DNA from: Octopus vulgaris
Lineage: Eukaryota
Direction of reading: 5' to 3'
NCBI GenBank assembly: GCA_951406725.2
Contig: OX597820.1
Location: forward strand, 13,082,001-13,146,000
DNA: 64,000 bases
Shown here: positions 29,754 to 58,938 of the stretch, piece by piece
Layout: each line of letters starts with the position of its first letter
Numbering within the stretch: position 1 is the stretch's first letter
Made by a program: the position numbers and the translations under genes
Notes under the pieces: generated by a model
What the model was told of the DNA's origin: nothing
Seen by the model: the letters and a program-made list of their open reading frames with translations, nothing else
Database searches by the model: none

Positions 29754-32106
<2,353 letters not shown>

Positions 32107-32618: not shown

Positions 32619-34518
<1,900 letters not shown>

Positions 34519-37992: not shown

Positions 37993-38050
<58 letters not shown>
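37479..38050. repeat. (TATG)n/(TA)n/(GA)n compound microsatellite
   Basis: Directly visible. Confidence 0.92.
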
Positions 38051-38052
<2 letters not shown>

Positions 38053-38499
38053 ATATGATACATGCTATCTTCATGATTAGACAAGAAAACAAGCCATAAA
38101 ACTTCGTCAGACTTCACTAAACACAAATGTGTTTTGGCTTCCAAGGCCACAGGTTCAAAAATATTACGAACATAAAATCTGTTTATCTAGAAAATATTGT
38201 TTTTGTCTAAAGATGTCTTCAATGCTGATTTCCTTCAGAACTTCCTTTTCTTTCTTTCATACTTCAGCTCACCCTTCTTCCTTGATTCCACCTTCTTTTT
38301 CACATCCCTCCTCTCACAGCTTTCTCTTTCTTCTCCTCTTCATTTTGCTCCTCAGATTTTCTGTCTCCTGTCCTCTAACTTCTCCCATTCTCCTTTTCTT
38401 TTGCTTTACCATGCTTTTGTCTTTCCACAACTACTTTACTACAATTGCTGCCCCTATTATCTATCTTTTAATCTATCTAACTATCTGTCCGCCTGCCTG

Positions 38500-38594
<95 letters not shown>

Positions 38595-39072
38595 GACTAT
38601 CTGTCTATTTATCTATCTATCTATGTATGTATCTATATCTATTTATATATCTATCTACCTGCCCGGCTGTCTGTATGTATGTCTACATATTTATCTATCG
38701 CTATTTTTATTAGCCAACTCCATTGATTCTGCTGCGTTTCTTATATTTCATAATCTTTTTGCTTTCATTTTGTATTTCCGATTCTTCCTTTCAGTAATAA
38801 ACACCTCACATTTGTCCTTCTTTTACTTCGTCTTCATGATATTCATCTTCCTTTCTTTCCTTCTTCATCTCATCCACTTATTGCCACCTACCTATATATA
38901 TATATATATATATATATTTGTGTGTGTAAGTGTATGTATATTTGTGTGTGTGACTGTATGTATCTTTGTGTGTGTGTGTGTGTGTGTCTGTGTGTGTGTA
39001 TGTGCGTGTCTAATAACTATTAGTGACGGAGGTGGTCTTCGTAACGAAGATTAATTTTCTCATCCAACTTAC

Positions 39073-39430
39073 CTTGTAAGGGGTCATTTTGGACGTTATA
39101 GGGTGCGGAAATCGATCTGAGATATCATCCTTTGTACATATTACATCGGCCAGCATAATGTGTCATCGCTGACTGTTTAGCCATTATTAAACAATACTAG
39201 TTTGACAGATTTGTGATGTAGCATTTCGTGATAGGCTGTCTGTTGCTGACGAAGTGCAAATTACCCTGAAATCAGGTGATGCAACAATCATATCCGCTCC
39301 GTCGGTGCTGACAGTACTTCGCCTAACTTCATTGTTGTCTGCAGTGTCGTCTCATTTAAAACGAATCGATCAATGTTCATAATGTACGTGTAAACAACCT
39401 CTGAAATCGATGCGGCCATTTATATGAAAA
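39073..39430 (-). other. Candidate host exon (5' UTR plus possible start MLADVICTKDDISDRFPHPITSKMTPYK)
   Basis: Unique sequence bounded by acceptor ttattcatttctag| and donor AAG|GTAAGT on the minus strand; no homology recognised. Confidence 0.35.
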
Positions 39431-39949
39431 CTAGAAATGAATAACCAACAGTGATACGCACATGCTCATCTTTGAACGAATGTAAATACGTATGTGTGTG
39501 TTGAAATCCTAGTATCCGTTGAAACTTCTCTTAACAGCCCTGCGATTTGCGATAATTGACCCGAGTTTCCTCTCCAGCCCTCGTATTTGTAAATATAATT
39601 TAGTTTCATTATTTTCAGTTTATTTTCTCTGCCTGTTAACCGCTATGATCCTCCATAAATAGGGTGTTTCTCTGTCCATATTTGAATATTATGTCTTTGA
39701 ATGATTTGTATCAATTGCAGTATCTCAAGAGCAGTCATGGGCAAACGGTGACCCGTGGAACTTGTTGAACAGCAAGTCTTATGGAATGTTACCTTGAATT
39801 CTTTCAACAGTGCGGTCCACAGTCCACCTGCTGATGAGCTATCTTCGTGTCGTGGGCTCGCTTCTCGGAAACCCTGTCTATAGACTGTAGAGAATAGTAA
39901 ATCGTTATACACAGATGAATAATCCCTTTAAGTCGATCTGACAAATCTC

Positions 39950-40106
39950 GATCTGACACTTGTTTCTTTCTGTGTTCCTTTCTGTGGAAGAGCGTAGGCT
40001 CGAAACGTAAAATACTTTTTCAATTCGTGAGCGTTATACTAATACATCTGTTTGTTTTCTACACCACCTGTCTTCGTATTTTGTTTTTTTCGTGAATTCT
40101 CTCCCT

Positions 40107-40108
<2 letters not shown>
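39950..40108 (+). mobile_element. Penelope-like terminal fragment ending in (TACA)/(TA)n, with degenerate hammerhead at 39978-40012
   Basis: cttt-CTGTGGAA-gagc(gtag)gctc-GAAACGTA-aaa. Confidence 0.55.
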
Positions 40109-40156
<48 letters not shown>

Positions 40157-40264
40157 ACAAAATTTAGAGGACAATTTTTAATCTTCGGATTTTTTTAAAA
40201 ATATGCTAAGCCACTGGTTTTAATTGATTTTAATTGATTAATATCAATTTCTACCCTTATTTAA

Positions 40265-40317
<53 letters not shown>

Positions 40318-40329
40318 GCTCTTGAAAGT

Positions 40330-40552
40330 TCGAAAGTCATCTTGCACCATAGGGTTTCCCGGATTCTGTTCCATATATAATCCCCTTCTGGAGAGGACGC
40401 CGGCACATGGTAGGATTATTCATTTTTGCCAGCTTAGTGAACTGGAGCTATGTAAAATGAAGTGTTTTGCTCAAAAGCACATCGCATCGACCGGTGTAGG
40501 AATCAAAACCTCATGAGTACAACACCCCGACCACAAAGCCATGCACTTCTAC
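40330..40552 (-). mobile_element. Degenerate SINE family D
   Basis: ggattattcatttttgccagcttagtgaactggagc...gtgttttgctcaa matches 57140-57371. Confidence 0.75.
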
Positions 40553-40850
40553 CTACATTGGTATAGATAGGTATACATATTGTTAGATACATAGATATAC
40601 ATATACATATTTATGTCCTCGTCGTCAAATTATTGGACGATTTAACGATTCGCTATTAAGTATATATAAAATTAACATAAACAACAGTTTGCAATGTTCC
40701 ACCATAAAGGAGAACTATAAATACTACTAAGTGACTGGGGAGTTTGGAAATACCTACAATGCAAGAAATAAGAGCTAAGGCGCTCATATTTGGCGGCAGT
40801 TATAATTCTCCTTTTTGATGAAACATTGCAAACCGCTGTTTATATAAATA

Positions 40851-41257
40851 GAGGTACAGGAGTGGCTGTGAGGTAAGTAGCTTTCTTACCAACCATATGG
40901 TTCCGGGTTCAGTTCCACTGCATGGCACCTTGGGCAGGTGTTCTACTATATCTGCCGACCGTATATATAATATATATATACATACAAATATATGTTTATA
41001 TATACACATGCATATATACATATATATATATATATGTATGTATGTGTGTGTGTGTGTATGTGTGTTATCCCCCAACATCGCTTGACAACCGATGCTGGTG
41101 TGTTTACGTCCCCGTAACTTAGCGGTTCGGCAAAAGTGACCAATAGAATAAGTACTATGCTTACAAAGAATAAGTCTTGGGGTCGATTTCTTCCACAAAA
41201 TGCGGTACTCCAGCATGGACGCAGTCAAATGATTGAAACAAGTAAAAGAGAGTGAAG
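40851..41257 (+). mobile_element. SINE A with internal deletion
   Basis: Head caggagtggctgtgaggtaag, core and tail present. Confidence 0.9.
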
Positions 41258-41261
41258 AGTG

Positions 41262-41316
<55 letters not shown>

Positions 41317-41345
41317 GTGTGTGTACTTTTGAATTCATAAATATT

Positions 41346-41558
41346 CTTTTCTACTCTAGGCATAAGTCCCGGAATTTTTGGGAAGGGGGATAGTCGATTA
41401 GATCATCCCCAGTACGCAACCAGTACTCAATTTAACGACCCTGGAAGGATGAAAGGCAAAATCGACCTCGAAGGAATTTGAACTCAGAACGTAAAGGCAG
41501 ACGAAACACCGCTAAGCATTTTGCCCGGCGTGCTAACGATTCTGCCAGCTCGCCGCCT
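41346..41558 (-). mobile_element. SINE B monomer with ~18-bp TSD
   Basis: Flanked by tttgaatt(c/t)ataaatatt. Confidence 0.9.
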
Positions 41559-42345
41559 TTGAATTTATAAATATTGGATATAAATATTTCCTAAATACAT
41601 ACTGCAAACTTTAGCCATGCAAATCTCAATGTTTTGCAATAAATATTATTTAAATTTGGTTTCGCATCTTTGTAGAATATCTTAATATATGAACCACACG
41701 TTGAAACACCATTGATATATCTTTAAACAAATTTACGTCGCAGTATTGTTTACTCTTCAGAGCTGAATGTGAGAAAAATATTTAATCGAGACGTTATATT
41801 TTCTTGATTTCTTTTCATAAGTCAATACCTTCTTTTTCTGCGGCCTTCTTTCTGAAAATATTTATTTATACATATGTATATTGAACATAAATAACACGAG
41901 AAACCAATACGTAAAATCTATTTTTCTCCCTTTTAAGTCGTTCAAACGATTTTTATCTGACACACAATTTGCCGCTTTTTTTTTCTCGACAAAATTGTCG
42001 TGATTATATTTGTCCTATGAAAGATATATTTTACTTTATACATATTTCTTTGTGAATTTATGTGTGTTACGATGTAGAGATATTAGCGTACGTATGTATG
42101 CATAATGGCATGTGAAGGTATTTATACAAAATGTGGTTTTAAAAAAGATCGTGATAAAATAAACTAGATTTTCCCGATCAAGCTAAATATATTTCGGCGC
42201 TTCACTGGAATGATTTACATAATTCAATGTTTTAATTTTTAATACCAATGCACGGTCAGGTTTTCTTTATATATTTGTGAGGCCTTTTAAACACAAGATT
42301 AATCAAGTGTACGAGATAAAAAATTTGCACTTTCTTATATGCATG

Positions 42346-42406
<61 letters not shown>

Positions 42407-42562
42407 ATATATACATATGTGTATATATATATATACACATATATATATGTATATATATACATATATATATATGTATATAAGTGTATATATATATGTATAT
42501 ATATATATGTGTGTGTGTGTGTCTAAGTATGTATGTATATATATATATATATATGTATATAG

Positions 42563-43077
42563 ATAATAGAAATATTAAAATTACTAAGTCTCTATAAAAG
42601 AGATTACGGCAGCGTTTACTGGAAATTAATTGTTATCGCCATATTAATATGGCATTCTTATAGATATAAGAATAATCGCTGCCGCTGGTCAGCTCCATGA
42701 GGCCACCGCCTCATAGATAGCTATTGATACACGATCTGTATCCATTATAACCTTCGAACAAGGGATGTCAGCCGCTTCACACTGCCAGTCCGACAGCTAC
42801 AGACGCGTTTCGGGGTATTGCCCCATGTCAATGTAGCGCAGTCAGACACCGCAGGTGTCGCCACTGACGTCTCTGTTCGAAGGTTTCTATTTACCTAGTT
42901 TCAGTGGAATACATCCACTTGTTTTCAATAATAGAAATATTAAAATTACTAAGTCTCTATAAAAGAGATTACGGCACCGTTTACTGGAAATTAATTGTTA
43001 TCGCCATATTAATATGGCATTCTTATAGATATAAGAATAATCGCTGCCGCTGGTCAGCTCCATGAGGCCACCGCCTC

Positions 43078-43085
<8 letters not shown>
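42563..43085 (-). mobile_element. Retrozyme-like element: 365-nt unit in 1.4 tandem copies (158-bp direct repeats 42563-42720 and 42928-43085)
   Basis: Near-perfect direct repeat with period 365; non-coding; many local hairpins; central hammerhead fold; sits between TA-rich and (GATA)n microsatellites. Confidence 0.75.
42796..42837 (-). ncRNA. Type I hammerhead ribozyme fold with variant core
   Basis: GCUACA-UUGACAU-GGGG(CAAUA)CCCC-GAAA-CGCG-UC-UGUAGC: 6-bp stem I, 4-bp stem II, palindromic ACGCGU stem III, GUC triplet. Confidence 0.72.
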
Positions 43086-43147
<62 letters not shown>

Positions 43148-43149
<2 letters not shown>

Positions 43150-43542
43150 GCGTAGGAATGGCCGTGTGGTAAGTAACTTGCTTACCAACCACATGGTTCT
43201 GGGTTCAGTCTCACTGCGTGGCACCTTGGGCAAGTGTCTTCTACTGTAGCCTCGGGCCGACCAAAGTGAATTTTGTAGACGGAAACTGAAAGAAGCCCGT
43301 CGTATATATGTATACATGTGCGTGTGTGTATATGCTTATGTGCCTGTTTTTGTCCCCTCAACATCGCTTGACAACAGATGGGGGTGGGTTTACGTCCCCG
43401 TAACTTAGCGTTTCGGCAAAAGAGACCGATAGAATAAGTACTAGGCTCACAAAGAATAAGTCCTGGGGTCGATTAGCTCGACTAAAGGCGGTGCTCCGGC
43501 ATGGCCAAAGTCAAAATGACTGAAATAAGTAAAAGAGTGAAA
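43148..43542 (+). mobile_element. SINE A, near full length
   Basis: Family A head, core and tail. Confidence 0.92.
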
Positions 43543-43548
43543 ACATAG

Positions 43549-43588
<40 letters not shown>

Positions 43589-43833
43589 GTATATCTCTAC
43601 TATGCGTATATGTATATAAGTATATTCATGGCCATCAAGCCTAGCCCTGTTTATCTGCATCATTATCTCCATACCATCACAACTAGATTTTTCTTATAGC
43701 CGCTGTTTACACCGAGGACCTCGTCCTCAATAAAGTCTTCACTATTTAGGGTCAAATCATGTGAGCACTACTACGTGTTTTCTATATTGAGCATCTCTAG
43801 CTCCTATCATTTGACTGTATATATACATATGCA

Positions 43834-43867
<34 letters not shown>

Positions 43868-44336
43868 TGTGCGTATACACATATATGTATGCCTCTTACT
43901 GCGCCTAGGGTTAAGATAGTGCTATGTGGTGTTGCTCTTATTTCTAGTAATACCGTCTGTCAATAAATTTGCCTTTAGGTTAAATTGTTAATAAGCCACA
44001 CATATTTTTTTATATAGTTTTCACTTCTACCCTTTTTGAAATCAGCACATGTTTACAGAGGTTTTTTTTTTATAAGTCGAGGAGGTGAGTTGACCTTAAC
44101 CCTAGGCGGAGTAAGAGCCACTGACGAGAATTAAGATGTTCTGCATCAAAATTCGAAGTGACTAGTGATATGGCTATGTCTGCAGCCATAGAGAGCTATG
44201 TCTCCCTTGTCAGCTTACTAAGATAGTGCTTTTATGGCTAATGAGTTGTTTTTGACTATTAATTCTAGCAATACTGGCACAATTTTATACCCTCTGTCAT
44301 TTTAGTGACGTCTCTATATACATACATTATATATTT

Positions 44337-44589
44337 TATAAAAGGGCTTAGTAAAATAAATTACTTTGCCGCTTACTGAACTCATTAGAAATAGCAACTA
44401 AAAAACTTTTTTAAAACTATTTCTAATACTTAAAGAAAACCTCTCTCATAAAGGTGAGTTGAGTTGAGCAAACACTTTATGAGAGAGGTTTTTTTAAGTA
44501 TTAGAAATAGTTTTAAAAAGTTTTTTAGCTGCTATTTCTAATGAGTTCAGTAAGCGGCAAAGTAATTTATTTTACTAAGCCCTTTTATA
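44337..44589. repeat. ~115-bp inverted repeat with 21-nt spacer (probable Penelope-like inverted terminal repeat)
   Basis: Arms 44337-44453 and 44475-44589 are near-perfect reverse complements; runs into (TA)n at 44695. Confidence 0.9.
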
Positions 44590-44690
44590 TAATGTAATAA
44601 TTTGAATTCGCCTTAAATGGTCCCTTTGCATACTGAACACTTGGTGAAATTGATTAATAATTAATTAATTTTACCCTCAATTGTTGAAAT

Positions 44691-45402
<712 letters not shown>

Positions 45403-45473
45403 GAGTACAGAAATTCGGGGTGAGTATGATAATAAGCACCTGTATATACCGTTTGGTGGTGTAGGTGGTAGAG

Positions 45474-45815
45474 TAAATTAATCAAAATAAAAACATGATG
45501 CCAAGGATTCAGCGGTACATATGTTTCGGGCCTTTATTAGACGGGTTTATAACAATGCATAATGTATGTCTGTGGCCTACATTGAGAGAAGAACGAGATG
45601 GACGCTTCATTTTTATGCTGTTGCCGCATTATGTCGTACGCGAATGAGAGGATTTGCATCTCCAACCAAGAGTTTTTGATGTAATACAAGTTGTTGTGCG
45701 CGGCTGAAGAAGGCCACAGACATACATTATGCATTGTTATAAATCCGTCTAATAAAGGCCCGAAACATATGTACCGCTGAATCCTTGGCATCATGTTTTT
45801 ATTTTGATTAATTTA
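45474..45815. mobile_element. Penelope-like terminal repeat with inverted partial copy (105-bp arms 45474-45578 and 45711-45815)
   Basis: One visible mismatch between arms; ends in (TA)n; contains a hammerhead. Confidence 0.8.
45700..45777 (+). ncRNA. Minimal type I hammerhead ribozyme with canonical core
   Basis: GCGG-CUGAAGA-aGGCC...GGCCc-GAAA-C-AUAU-G-UA-CCGC: 4-bp stem I, stem II with long insert, palindromic ACAUAUGU, GUA triplet. Confidence 0.8.
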
Positions 45816-46224
45816 TATATATATATATATATATATACATACACACACGCACAGGCGCGTATACGAGTAACTCTAGTTGTCAGATAAAGGTATCTAAAAT
45901 TTAGGAATGAACTACACAAAAATTGTATTCTATGTATAATAAGATCATTTTCTATAGTTATTTACACGGAGATTATTCGAATTAGTAGTGAATATTATTT
46001 CATATATACTTCTAGTAAATTAAAAGAAGTTATCTTGCTTATATATATATTAAAGCTAATTAGAAGAAGATATCATATAGCAACTGTTTACATGATCCTT
46101 CGCTAGGAAGATTTATCATTAGAATCTAAGGAGAAAATTAGTCTAAAACAATGTTTGTGCAAACACGGGAACGGTATATAAAGACAAGACTAATTAGCAG
46201 TAATTAGCGCATAATAACCAGCCA

Positions 46225-46417
46225 CACCAACACACACATTAATATACTCACACACATGATTAGATATGTAAATATATATATATGTATACATTTATACACC
46301 TCTATACGTATAGATACACACACATACACACACACACATATATATATATAGACACGATTAGATATGTAAATATATATATGTATATATTTATATACATGTA
46401 TACGTATAGATTCATAC

Positions 46418-46457
<40 letters not shown>

Positions 46458-46472
46458 ATATGTATGTATGTA

Positions 46473-46526
<54 letters not shown>

Positions 46527-46670
46527 TATATATATATATTTATATCAATATACATACATATAACATCTGTGTGTATGCATGTCTCTGAATATTATGTGTT
46601 GTATGTCATAATATATAGATACATATAATACACACACATATATATTTCAAAATTACATACAACAAAATAC

Positions 46671-46702
<32 letters not shown>

Positions 46703-46849
46703 CTATATATGCATGTATGTATACATAAACACTTGTGTGTATATGTGTGTGTGCCTCATAATTTCTATGTCATTTCATTACACAATTGTATACACACTAT
46801 ATGTTTCATGTTTAACAGACTGAAAGAACATGTATACATATACATATAC

Positions 46850-46897
<48 letters not shown>

Positions 46898-47077
46898 GCA
46901 CACACATAGAAATACATACATATAGTATATTATTATATAAATATGTGTACGTATATATATATATATATATATATACTTATACACACACTCATATATGTAT
47001 ATATATATATATGGATGTGTGTGTCTGTGTATGTATATGTATGTGAATGTGTCATTGTGTGCTTGTGTGTGTGTGTG

Positions 47078-47133
<56 letters not shown>

Positions 47134-47515
47134 AGCTCCGAGCAAATATGTAAGCAGGTGGGTGTACTCATGAACGCACCAGTATTTATTCGTATTGGAT
47201 TTTACATAAACCACCACCGCACATTACTGCTCCTCTCACCACCACTCTATCATAAGTTAAATAAACGGTAATACCTCTCACGTTTCCTGCAACTACACGA
47301 GGATTATTTTCTTAATCTTAACGGAAGGATTTTGTGCAATGTCTTATGACATTGCTGCCTTGCCTACGAAGCAACCTGTCAAAACAAACTGCATTATTCG
47401 GATATATTACACTTCAGAAACTATCAATAACCACTGTTTTACACTCACTTGCCTCTCTAATCTCCCGACGTATTTCTATTTGCGTTAAACCGTATTAAAA
47501 TACTAATTACATACG

Positions 47516-47558
<43 letters not shown>

Positions 47559-47604
47559 ATCTGTATTTATATATATATAGAGAGAGAGAAATATATATAT
47601 ATAC

Positions 47605-47683
<79 letters not shown>

Positions 47684-47730
47684 CATATGCGTTTATATGC
47701 ATATATATGTGTGTGTGTGTGTGTGTGAAC
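46225..47730. repeat. Extended (TA)/(CA)/(TG) low-complexity region
   Basis: Mostly dinucleotide repeats with one unique interruption at about 47130-47510. Confidence 0.88.
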
Positions 47731-47940
47731 TATATGCATATTTGTATGCAAGTATAAATGCAGATGAATTTCTGATACATCCTCGATTATATTTGCGTGC
47801 ATGTGCACTCGCTATTTATATGCGATCATGTGTATACATGCATGTTAACTAGTTGTCTATCGCTTTATCTGTCTGTCTATTTGTCTGTCTGTCTGTCTGA
47901 CTCTGTCTCTCTCTTCAAGATATATATATATATATGTATA

Positions 47941-48515
47941 TATAAAGTGCGCTGTGATTAAATTGTTTTCTAAATTACACAAAAATGAAAATAACTCTGC
48001 CATCTCTTTTTAACAGATATATTTACCATAAGTACATTGAAATATCTTCAAATACTAAGGAGTAAATTGGTTCAATAAATTCGCCATTGGCTTCAACTAC
48101 GGCTTCAACACGACTTTAGAATTTCCTGAAAATCTTCTGGACGGTGTCCTTCTTTAAATAGGTGAATGCAGCCATAATCCTTGCTTTCAGTTCATTTTTG
48201 GGTATTACAAGGAGATTTGTTGGTCTCTTGCTAAATTTGCGCCACACATAATAATCAAGGGGGTTGCAGGGTGGGGATTTAGGTGGCCAGATGTTAGGGG
48301 TGGTGTGATCACAGAAAGTGTCTCACAGCCATGACTGGGTTTTCCTGCATGTGTGGCATGGTGCAGAGTCCTGTTCCCAGAAATAAGGTGTAAGCCTCCA
48401 TGTTGTGTGTAAGACTGTGTAGGTAGCCGAATGGAGGCATAACGTCGTCATCACTAGCGATCAATCCAAACACCATGATGACGACTGGATGTCTGATTTT
48501 TATCACTCTCGGTAA
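47941..48515 (-). mobile_element. 3' half of a decayed DD37D/maT transposon
   Basis: Minus strand: VFGLIASDDDVMPP, HFCDHTTPNIWPPKSPPCNPLDYYVW; homologous to 58320-58938 including the terminal region. Confidence 0.88.
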
Positions 48516-57644: not shown

Positions 57645-58938
57645 TATAGCGTATGCAATGGGTAAGTTGTTGCCATTTTATATTTTTAAATTCGCGTATG
57701 CGCTTTGTTTGTTTTTGATTTTATCGACTACACAGTGTAGTAGGGTCAGTTGGGCACCGTCTGTGTGAAAAATAGAACCATAACGCAATTCTCTCTGCCA
57801 GAAATTTGAAAAGGAAAGAACATGCTGTACTCATGGGATTCGCACGGGTATCTCCAATATGAAACTTTGTTTCTTTGGGTGCCAATCTGAGGAGAGTGCA
57901 GAGGATTTGGAAAGACTTGGATGAATCTAATGGTGATTACGAAGGTATAGTAACTCGGAAAACTCACTCTGATTGTTCTTATGAGACAATAACTCCTGAA
58001 TGTGTTGCTGAGATCCAGGTCAACAATCCCTCCAAGTCAATCAGTTCCATCTCCAGGAACACAGGAGTACCTCAGTTTCTTATTAGGCAGGTAGTGCGTG
58101 AAAACTTTTGGTATTCTTCATACAAGATGAGAAAGGACCAAGTTTTATCCCAAGCCATCAAGGACAAGAAAGACCGCGCTACAAAGCTTTTGAATAAACT
58201 CAAGCAACCCCTCCAACCAAACATGCTTTGTTTTTTCTCAGACGAGAAATATTTGTGCAGGGAACAGAGGGTGAACATACAGTGCAACCGTCGGCTTGCC
58301 GTGTCCCCAAAACATGTACTGAGACTGATAACTATCAAACATCCAGTCAACATCATAGTGTTTGGAGTTATCACTAGTAATGATGATGTTATGTCTCCAT
58401 TCATCTTCCCATACGGCCTCACACTCAACACGGAGGCCTACACCATGTGCCTGGAGGAGGTAGTGTCGCCCTAGTTCAATAGGGTGGCTGCTGGAAGACC
58501 GTATGTCTGGCAACAGGACTCTGCACCATGCCACACAAGCAGGAGAACCCAGTCATGGCTGTCAGACAATTTCTGCGACATCACCCCTAACATCTGGCCA
58601 TCTAACCACCCAGACTCCAATCCCATTGTTTATTATGTGTGGGACGCATTTGACTGAACGACCAACAAAAGTCCTTGTAACACCAAAGATGAACTGAATT
58701 CAAGAATTATGGTAGCATTTACCAATTTAAACAAGGAGAAAATCCAGAAGACTTGGAGGAGATTCCAAGGTCGTCTGGTGGTCGTGATTGAAGCCACTGG
58801 CGAATTTCTTGAATAAATTTACTAAATAGTATTTCAAGATCTTATAATATAATTTTGGTAAATATATCTGTTAAAACGAGATGTCTGCGTTATTTTCATT
58901 TTTGCATAATTTTGATGACAGTTTATTCACTGCATTCT
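57645..58938 (+). mobile_element. Full-length but decayed Tc1/mariner-superfamily DD37D (maT) transposon
   Basis: About 1.3 kb with degenerate TIRs; transposase motifs FFSDEK, VFGVITS, YVWQQDSAPCH, WPSNHPDSNPI(V)YYVW; in-frame stops. Confidence 0.88.
57875..58815 (+). pseudogene. maT/DD37D transposase pseudogene
   Basis: ORF 57875-58474 continues in frame after a TAG; third catalytic Asp is mutated to Val; second stop near 58655. Confidence 0.85.

Follow-up and report, generated by a model that had tools for sequence, protein, structure and literature searches.

Related elements and the octopus locus

Metazoan retrozymes that lack long terminal repeats (non-LTR retrozymes) consist of non-coding tandem units, 350-390 bp long in mussel, with one type I hammerhead ribozyme each; the two reports on them describe a highly paired predicted circle, a GC content below 50% and co-existence with Penelope-like elements (PLEs) (Cervera and de la Pena 2020, PMC7229834; Li et al. 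10.64898/2026.07.22.740005). An element with these features lies on the minus strand of a 64,000-nucleotide stretch of the Octopus vulgaris genome (contig OX597820.1, positions 13,082,001 to 13,146,000, assembly GCA_951406725.2), the whole of which is called the window here. The element is a non-LTR retrozyme with a 365-nt unit; it adds a member to an established class, and its core is a variant already on record. Unlike the described retrozymes, the octopus family has U3-A8 throughout, with C3-G8, U4C and U3.G8 in sister families; it shows an explicit PLE insertion anatomy, exists mostly as dispersed copies of one or two units, and is described here from its DNA.

U3-A8 is reported as natural and active in vitro (PMC3088659), and a study of PLE hammerheads describes some 1,300 PLE-type motifs of Schistosoma that have it (Cervera and de la Pena 2014, PMC4209133). 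The reading of the core as new in the preliminary description of the locus is therefore not supported. The octopus unit resembles these terminal-repeat hammerheads, including the U3-A8 variant of Schistosoma Cercyon, in its U3-A8 covariation, its palindromic helix III and its opposite-strand copies 100-700 bp apart; it differs in having stems I and II of canonical size with an internal loop, and in lacking an open reading frame (ORF). Neptune-clade PLEs share with it partial tandems, an inverted 5'-truncated arm, a tail at one end only and microsatellite targets (bioRxiv 10.1101/2021.04.23.441226), whereas the retrozyme tail is about 62 nt rather than 30-40 and the retrozyme is non-autonomous.

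A second system found with the family recalls the target-specific long interspersed nuclear elements (LINEs) of the Tx1 clade, of which Tx1 inserts into Tx1D, Tx1-Mar into Mariner-N4_AMi, Keno into U2 and Kibi and Koshi into microsatellites (PMC4494074). The octopus LINE has, like these, an ORF2 with endonuclease (APE), reverse transcriptase (RT) and zinc-finger domains, an ORF1 with a CCHC motif, a fixed site in a multi-copy element, a target duplication, tandem arrays and non-autonomous companions. Unlike the Tx1-clade elements of that source, its target is a ribozyme-bearing retroelement, it sits at a constant distance from the hammerhead in families whose sequences differ, it has no poly(A) tail, and an intact hammerhead lies directly downstream. 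No report of a cephalopod retrozyme or of a retrozyme-targeting LINE was found in the literature covered, which did not extend to subscription journals, Repbase entries or bioRxiv supplements.

The retrozyme family and its hammerhead

The genome searched comprises 2.8 Gb in 227 contigs. A first search gave 2,023 candidate copies, the best 40 of which were scored at 98-100%. The 31-nt 3' terminus of the unit has 2,121 exact matches (control 0), and an exact UUGANAA-type hammerhead pattern has 2,504, compared with 26 when the pattern was reversed as a control; of the first 100 matches listed, 93 were read by eye as this family (family 1). The canonical CUGANGA-type pattern gave 677 matches against 18 in the control. 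The family thus has about 2,000 dispersed copies of 1-5.5 units each, and the unit is not single-copy, in line with the multi-copy retrozyme family that had been supposed. As expected of a non-LTR retrozyme, the unit is short and non-coding, is repeated in tandem and contains a single hammerhead.

The core was examined with a pattern in which its seven letters were left free; it gave 329 matches, and the first 100 listed were counted by hand. U3 and A8 were present in all 100 and UUGANAA in 94, with position 7 varying between C, A and U, while UUGACAU, the core of the window copy, occurred once and CUGANGA not at all. U3-A8, which had been described as compensatory, is consequently the family state, and A9U is private to the window copy; UUGACAU, which had been put forward as a possible family core, is not one. 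Nor are the other copies canonical, so that the family escapes CUGANGA searches as foreseen. The family has the features expected of a hammerhead core (a 3-8 pair, G5, A6, A9, G12-A14, A15.1-U16.1 and an NUH site), of which the window copy lacks A9. Contigs of four sequencing runs labelled as four organisms carry A at position 9 at all or nearly all depth. A9U is a decay of the window copy, and its hammerhead is likely impaired, since the prediction adds a U9-G12 pair at the end of stem II.

Subfamilies differ from the window copy by about 2% (A), about 12% (B) and 14-19% (C and others). In a set of 28 sequences chosen for diversity, 98.1% of cells were paired, as compared with 30-44% in slid controls, and the covariation score was reached by none of 500 shuffles. 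Changes on both sides of a pair were found in stem I (AU 17, GU 3, GC 8), stem II (GC 20, AU 7), the helix III palindrome (GC 18, AU 8) and also stem Ib, answering the earlier question of whether the stems covary; the palindrome shifts across subfamilies from ACGCGU to ACAUGU. A three-helix junction with an open helix I and covarying stems, as in type I hammerheads, is thus present, though the covariation comes from few independent events. Stem I is followed by an internal loop (UGC/U) and then by stem Ib, 3 bp of which are kept with covariation across subfamilies. The linear monomer folds better than all of 100 shuffles (z = -9.5), and the circular form reaches z = -12.5 against 30; taken by itself, the hammerhead region of 76 nt is not exceptional (z = -0.96).

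Three sister families were identified. One, a tandem family of 354-nt units whose core is CUGAUGA, can be aligned with the unit over the full length, scoring 210 (200 shuffles: 98 +/- 11, maximum 136), and the CCGANGA family (482 exact pattern matches) and the UUGACGA family (29 matches, with U3.G8 in all 12 loci fetched) are homologous to the unit, each scoring above all of 100 shuffles. The four families are 30-45% apart and keep the core and the stems, the changes preserving structure. U3-A8 and U4C are known natural variants (PMC3088659; PMC4209133), and U3.G8 as a family consensus was not found in the literature covered. The 354-nt sister lies at L154 (G000:C1:169824500-169829500) and at L139, L142, L143 and L151, and no LINE junction was seen there. 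The UUGACGA family (L315-L326) is of low copy number and has the U3.G8 wobble core, a longer palindrome and mostly inverted arrangements.

Insertion anatomy and probable mobilisation by Penelope-type enzymes

Insertions were analysed in 117 arrays from 75 loci. It was found that 105 of them stop at one of two fixed 3' ends about 62 nt apart (end 1 in 53, end 2 in 52), that 97 of these 105 run into a microsatellite, and that in 29 of 36 inverted pairs the two arms stop at different 3' ends. PLE insertions are described in the Neptune study as having partial tandems, an inverted 5'-truncated arm and a tail at one end only (bioRxiv 10.1101/2021.04.23.441226). The fixed 3' ends, one-ended tail, inverted 5'-truncated arm and microsatellite target of the retrozyme fit this anatomy, and mobilisation by Penelope-type enzymes, proposed at the outset, is likely. 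Arrays are seamless up to 5.5 units, with as many as five hammerheads in a row. In subfamily B, 9 of the 10 multi-unit loci have arrays whose units are 0-3 letters apart, and other loci differ. The 5' ends are scattered, with 11 of 117 in a 30-nt bin around the cut and no pile-up, which argues against a linear cut monomer as the template; a circle would agree with it, as would an uncut multimer.

A young PLE resident in the genome (L095-L102, e.g. G000:C6:133343000-133351500) has a 781-aa open frame with RVT_1 followed by GIY-YIG, and an upstream frame of about 479 aa. Its terminal repeats both carry UUGAUAA hammerheads, and its two 3' ends, about 35 nt apart, run into (TA)n; core, palindrome type and target are thus common to this PLE and the retrozyme. 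Its Neptune clade was assigned from the order RT-CxxC-GIY-YIG alone. This Neptune-like PLE is a candidate partner of the retrozyme. In its 3' region, repeated CCAAT-like and TGACGT motifs precede a TATA-like element.

Further associations of the two kinds of element were seen. At L131 (G000:C1:30481822-30484852) a retrozyme arm is linked with an N-terminal piece from a different PLE family, duplicated and inverted; either template switching or insertion into an old PLE could explain this chimera. At L004:1896-2752 the 3' ends of a retrozyme and of a PLE are opposed on the two sides of a single (TA)n tract. L080 and L086 belong to another PLE family, which has a terminal hammerhead-like motif with GCAA replacing GAAA.

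Proposed mechanism and alternatives

It is considered probable, with good confidence, that the element is a non-coding multi-copy retroelement whose RNA is predicted to cleave itself at a U3-A8 hammerhead, likely circularised and likely reverse-transcribed into microsatellites by a PLE, the window copy being likely impaired by A9U. Tandem units would first be transcribed. Each would then be cut once by its hammerhead, probably best as a dimer through the palindromic helix III, as structure and covariation suggest; motifs with such a helix are described as acting as dimers (PMC4209133). A host ligase, of RtcB type in the retrozyme model of PMC7229834, would close the monomer. A Neptune-like RT/GIY-YIG enzyme would finally nick (TA)n-type DNA and, priming at one of the two AT-rich points of the RNA some 62 nt apart, may copy round it. 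The outcome would be the anatomy found in the genome, with 0.1-5.5 units, scattered 5' ends and inverted arms.

Several observations weigh against this mechanism. The minimum-energy fold of the 60-mer sequesters the core and lies 7 kcal/mol below the hammerhead fold. Rfam had no match at E <= 10 in 42570-43080, a scan of the A9U copy only. The number of pairs changed on both sides does not exceed shuffles (128/500); these changes represent few subfamily events, and related sequences can beat shuffles without structure. The 24 sequencing runs matched are contigs, none recorded as RNA, and in the four examined, pieces of the family and the tandem joint are present with no molecule ends visible. 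Transcription, self-cleavage and circular RNA are accordingly predictions. Within subfamily A, distances within arrays and to the nearest other copy are similar, and L064 (subfamily B) has 3-6 differences within its array, so that a single circular template is not proven. In a blastn comparison of the retrozyme with 42 stretches selected by GIY-YIG, 150 of 6,136 PLE candidates having been scored, no match was found except one separate retrozyme copy, and the tail of the retrozyme (about 62 nt) is unlike that of the young PLE (about 35 nt). A partner sought by DNA similarity, by a shared 3' terminus and through chimeras was not found.

Among the alternatives, spread through uncut linear multimeric transcripts, with a hammerhead conserved but slow or unused and circles rare or irrelevant, is unlikely. 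The sequestered core is in its favour, as are reports that little activity was seen in vitro with minimal hammerheads of PLEs (PMC4209133) and with eight of nine predicted Xenopus retrozyme dimers, only one of which cleaved in vitro (10.64898/2026.07.22.740005), and the scattered 5' ends fit it equally well. Yet four families that are 30-45% apart retain the core and the stems, position 7 alone varying freely and the changes preserving structure; long arrays have identical units and array-private variants; and mussel and coral retrozymes of similar size cleave and circularise (PMC7229834).

It is very unlikely that the unit is a truncated or solo pseudo-long terminal repeat (pLTR) of an autonomous PLE yet to be found, its tandems being ordinary PLE partial tandems without independent circular RNA. 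Such an origin would agree with the fact that every insertion mark is a PLE mark, with the presence of the same core in PLE terminal repeats of the same genome, and with the match of Xenopus retrozymes to pLTRs (10.64898/2026.07.22.740005). It accords poorly with the absence of a contiguous PLE frame in all 50 stretches fetched by the 3' terminus, with seamless arrays of up to 5.5 units, and with canonical-size stems I and II and a 365-nt fold in which most bases pair, whereas the sampled PLEs have minimal hammerheads rich in AT.

A LINE inserting at one retrozyme site

The retrozyme copy at L061 holds a 5.4-kb LINE that lacks poly(A) and is flanked by a target duplication of 17 nt; its frames are a 515-aa ORF1 containing a CCHC knuckle and a 1,140-aa APE-RT-zinc-finger frame. 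This locus, with two hammerheads 5.8 kb apart, had been considered as a full PLE and was rejected as such, being the LINE insertion. The best solved relative is L1 ORF2p (E 5e-66). The ORF1 and ORF2 architecture is that of Tx1-type elements; the LINE is of L1/Tx1 type, and the choice of Tx1 over L1 is inferred from domain order and behaviour. Among 38 homologues there was no named Tx1 reference, and homologue and atlas searches gave only generic RT-endonuclease proteins.

A search with the LINE 3' end, in which all 32 candidates were scored, gave 33 matches, of which 25 were fetched. The best 20 of these, at 16 loci, stop at the same retrozyme site, and the five most diverged stop elsewhere. 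Downstream of the 20 lies the retrozyme (17) or the duplication and another LINE (3). At 14 single LINE loci, the upstream side shows a full-length LINE with upstream target (11), a truncated LINE joining an upstream retrozyme (2) or a LINE joining an inverted arm (1). Copies differ by 0-1.7%, and both frames are open in 6 of 16. Five LINEs stand in tandem inside one retrozyme array (G000:C2:73044600-73069000, L249-L252), spaced by the target duplication or by one retrozyme unit. A pattern spanning the LINE-retrozyme junction has 41 matches (control 0), in none of which the sequence is that of subfamily A; this gives a weak hint of either escape or youth. Among about 28 loci, subfamily A accounts for none, against a share of 14%.

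The junction matches also brought to light a 1.7-kb ORF1-only relative, whose ORF1 is 26% identical; it gave 282 candidates, of which 40 were scored and 30 copies fetched. These sit on the site in family 1 (14), the CCGANGA family (8) and the UUGACGA family (3), beside a duplication of unknown origin (1) or elsewhere (4). The one of unknown origin (L313) could come from the 354-nt sister or from another family. Autonomous relatives 78-87% identical to the LINE sit in the UUGACGA family. Despite differing target sequences, the insertion point in all three families precedes the core by 33-38 nt and the cut by 65-72 nt. The proportions flanked by one target type, 20 of 25 and 25 of 30 copies fetched, exceed the 20% used as a threshold for target specificity (PMC4494074). 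The LINE lineage therefore targets the retrozyme at a fixed position in three of the four families. A Mantel comparison of LINE and flank distances gave rho 0.28 (p 0.11) and is unusable, one row having another LINE as its flank. A tree of 30 short-element 3' ends (190 nt, without support values) groups roughly by target family, with family 3 split, and is taken as a hint. One rearranged retrozyme-element junction recurs on a second contig with 96.5% identity along 1,028 nt, and one of the two copies stands inside a PLE-type palindrome; a LINE-retrozyme composite has thus been copied as a unit at least once.

A very unlikely explanation concerns this step alone, namely that a LINE without site specificity landed once or twice in a retrozyme and that PLE machinery then amplified the composite: the rearranged composite at two unlinked loci, the lack of upstream target in 5 of 20 short-element regions (present in the other 15) and in 1 of 14 long-LINE loci, and the flank type common to a near-identical LINE clade would suit it, but it does not account for the same core-relative position in three families with different target sequence, for the 5'-truncated LINEs that join upstream target (L241, L242, L249), for LINE-LINE tandems parted only by the duplication, or for L241, which combines a LINE of one clade with another flank.

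In the preferred, site-specific reading, an L1/Tx1-type LINE lineage inserts, as the junctions show, into subfamily B and C copies in the genome and into those of two sister families. Its read-through transcript would carry an intact hammerhead, predicted to cut about 65-70 nt into the target sequence, and the composite is sometimes copied as a unit, as one case shows, presumably by a PLE-type enzyme. On a conservative reading, the LINE endonuclease would be specific for a safe multi-copy target, as for Tx1 elements aimed at other transposons (PMC4494074). A bolder proposal, tentative and on balance doubtful, is that of a three-tier parasite, a LINE specialised on hammerhead retrozymes that borrows their ribozyme. 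The downstream hammerhead would cut read-through transcripts to leave a 65-70-nt target-matched 3' tail that replaces poly(A) and guides priming back to the retrozyme family it came from; co-transcribed target is noted to be capable of strengthening specific integration (PMC4494074). An upstream hammerhead could set the 5' end, so that the LINE would also be carried by the PLE machinery in the form of a kilobase circle.

The window copy and its surroundings

The insertion in the window comprises 1.44 units of the 365-nt monomer with a single hammerhead (Table 1). The direct repeat of period 365 reported before was borne out at 161 bp rather than 158 (42563-42723 and 42928-43088, with two mismatches, one of them at the microsatellite edge). 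One variant is common to both window units and occurs in no other fetched locus; copies 95-99% identical to the window unit exist elsewhere in the genome. Unit positions q1-q365 are numbered from 42927 downwards, the core being q97-103. The sequence agrees with the minus-strand type I hammerhead as first written, including the palindrome, the GUC and the predicted cut. Its perfect stem I was upheld; the proposed extension ACUGC/GCAGU round a 10-nt bulge was not, as it overlaps the strands of stem Ib and is absent from the predicted fold. No ORF of at least 120 aa overlaps the element.

Table 1. Positions of the retrozyme insertion and its parts in the window
Feature	Position	Strand	Basis or remark
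Complete 365-nt retrozyme unit, subfamily A	42563..42927	-	ends at fixed 3' end 2, runs into (TA)n
5'-truncated upstream partial unit (0.44)	42928..43088	-	starts in (TATC)n tract with TATCT microhomology
Type I hammerhead	42788..42847	-	sequence, predicted fold, covariation
Stem Ib	42847-42841/42794-42788	-	GUCUGAC/GUCGGAC, beyond 3x1 internal loop UGC/U
Stem I	42837-42832/42801-42796	-	predicted fold
Core UUGACAU	42831-42825	-	sequence
Stem II GGGG/CCCC with loop CAAUA	42824-42812	-	sequence
GAAA	42811-42808	-	sequence
Palindromic helix III ACGCGU	42808-42803	-	sequence
Predicted GUC cleavage site, between 42802 and 42801	42801..42802	-	position from hammerhead numbering
A9U, private to window copy	42825..42825	-	U9-G12 pair predicted on top of stem II
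TA-rich microsatellite at 3' insertion end	42521..42562	.	sequence
(GATA)n/(TATC)n microsatellite at 5' insertion end	43089..43149	.	sequence
Alternative fixed 3' end 1 of the family, unused by window copy	42623..42634	-	about 62 nt before end 2; PLE-type tail boundary
Position homologous to LINE target duplication of subfamilies B and C	42850..42866	-	empty in window; subfamily A sequence differs there

An Rfam scan of 38000-48000 returned microsatellite-driven miRNA noise, with no hammerhead among the 150 of 206 matches listed. A common repeat resembling a short interspersed nuclear element is present in two copies about 80% alike (40842-41229 and 43138-43515), one of which starts directly after the (GATA)n tract beside the retrozyme. 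Inverted repeats resembling miniature inverted-repeat transposable elements are found at 44330-44596 (86 nt, 95%) and 45474-45815 (105 nt, 99%). The frames 29814-31130 (438 aa) and 33489-34271 (260 aa) adjoin (ATT)n tracts, and we take them to be like the C-terminal parts of restriction-like-endonuclease non-LTR elements. The frame 57863-58474 (203 aa) is presumably akin to a Tc1/mariner transposase fragment.

Implications

The octopus retrozyme extends a known class to a lineage for which no report was found, and the genomic evidence from its insertions is unusually clear for the mobilisation of retrozymes by PLE enzymes, a hypothesis in the literature. Screens based on CUGANGA would miss the largest family in this genome, as is seen from the 2,504 pattern matches of the U3-A8 type against 677 of the canonical one. 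The surprising part is a site-specific retrotransposon that is aimed at a ribozyme element and tracks it across families. If the three-tier reading were true, it would explain the constant distance of the site from the core in spite of changing target sequence, and the four cores (U3-A8, C3-G8, U4C and U3.G8) form a natural series for the idea of a borrowed ribozyme. The LINE and the retrozyme together make a compact system in which to ask whether a self-cleaving ribozyme can replace a poly(A) tail and contribute to target choice, a question of relevance to programmable retrotransposon insertion.
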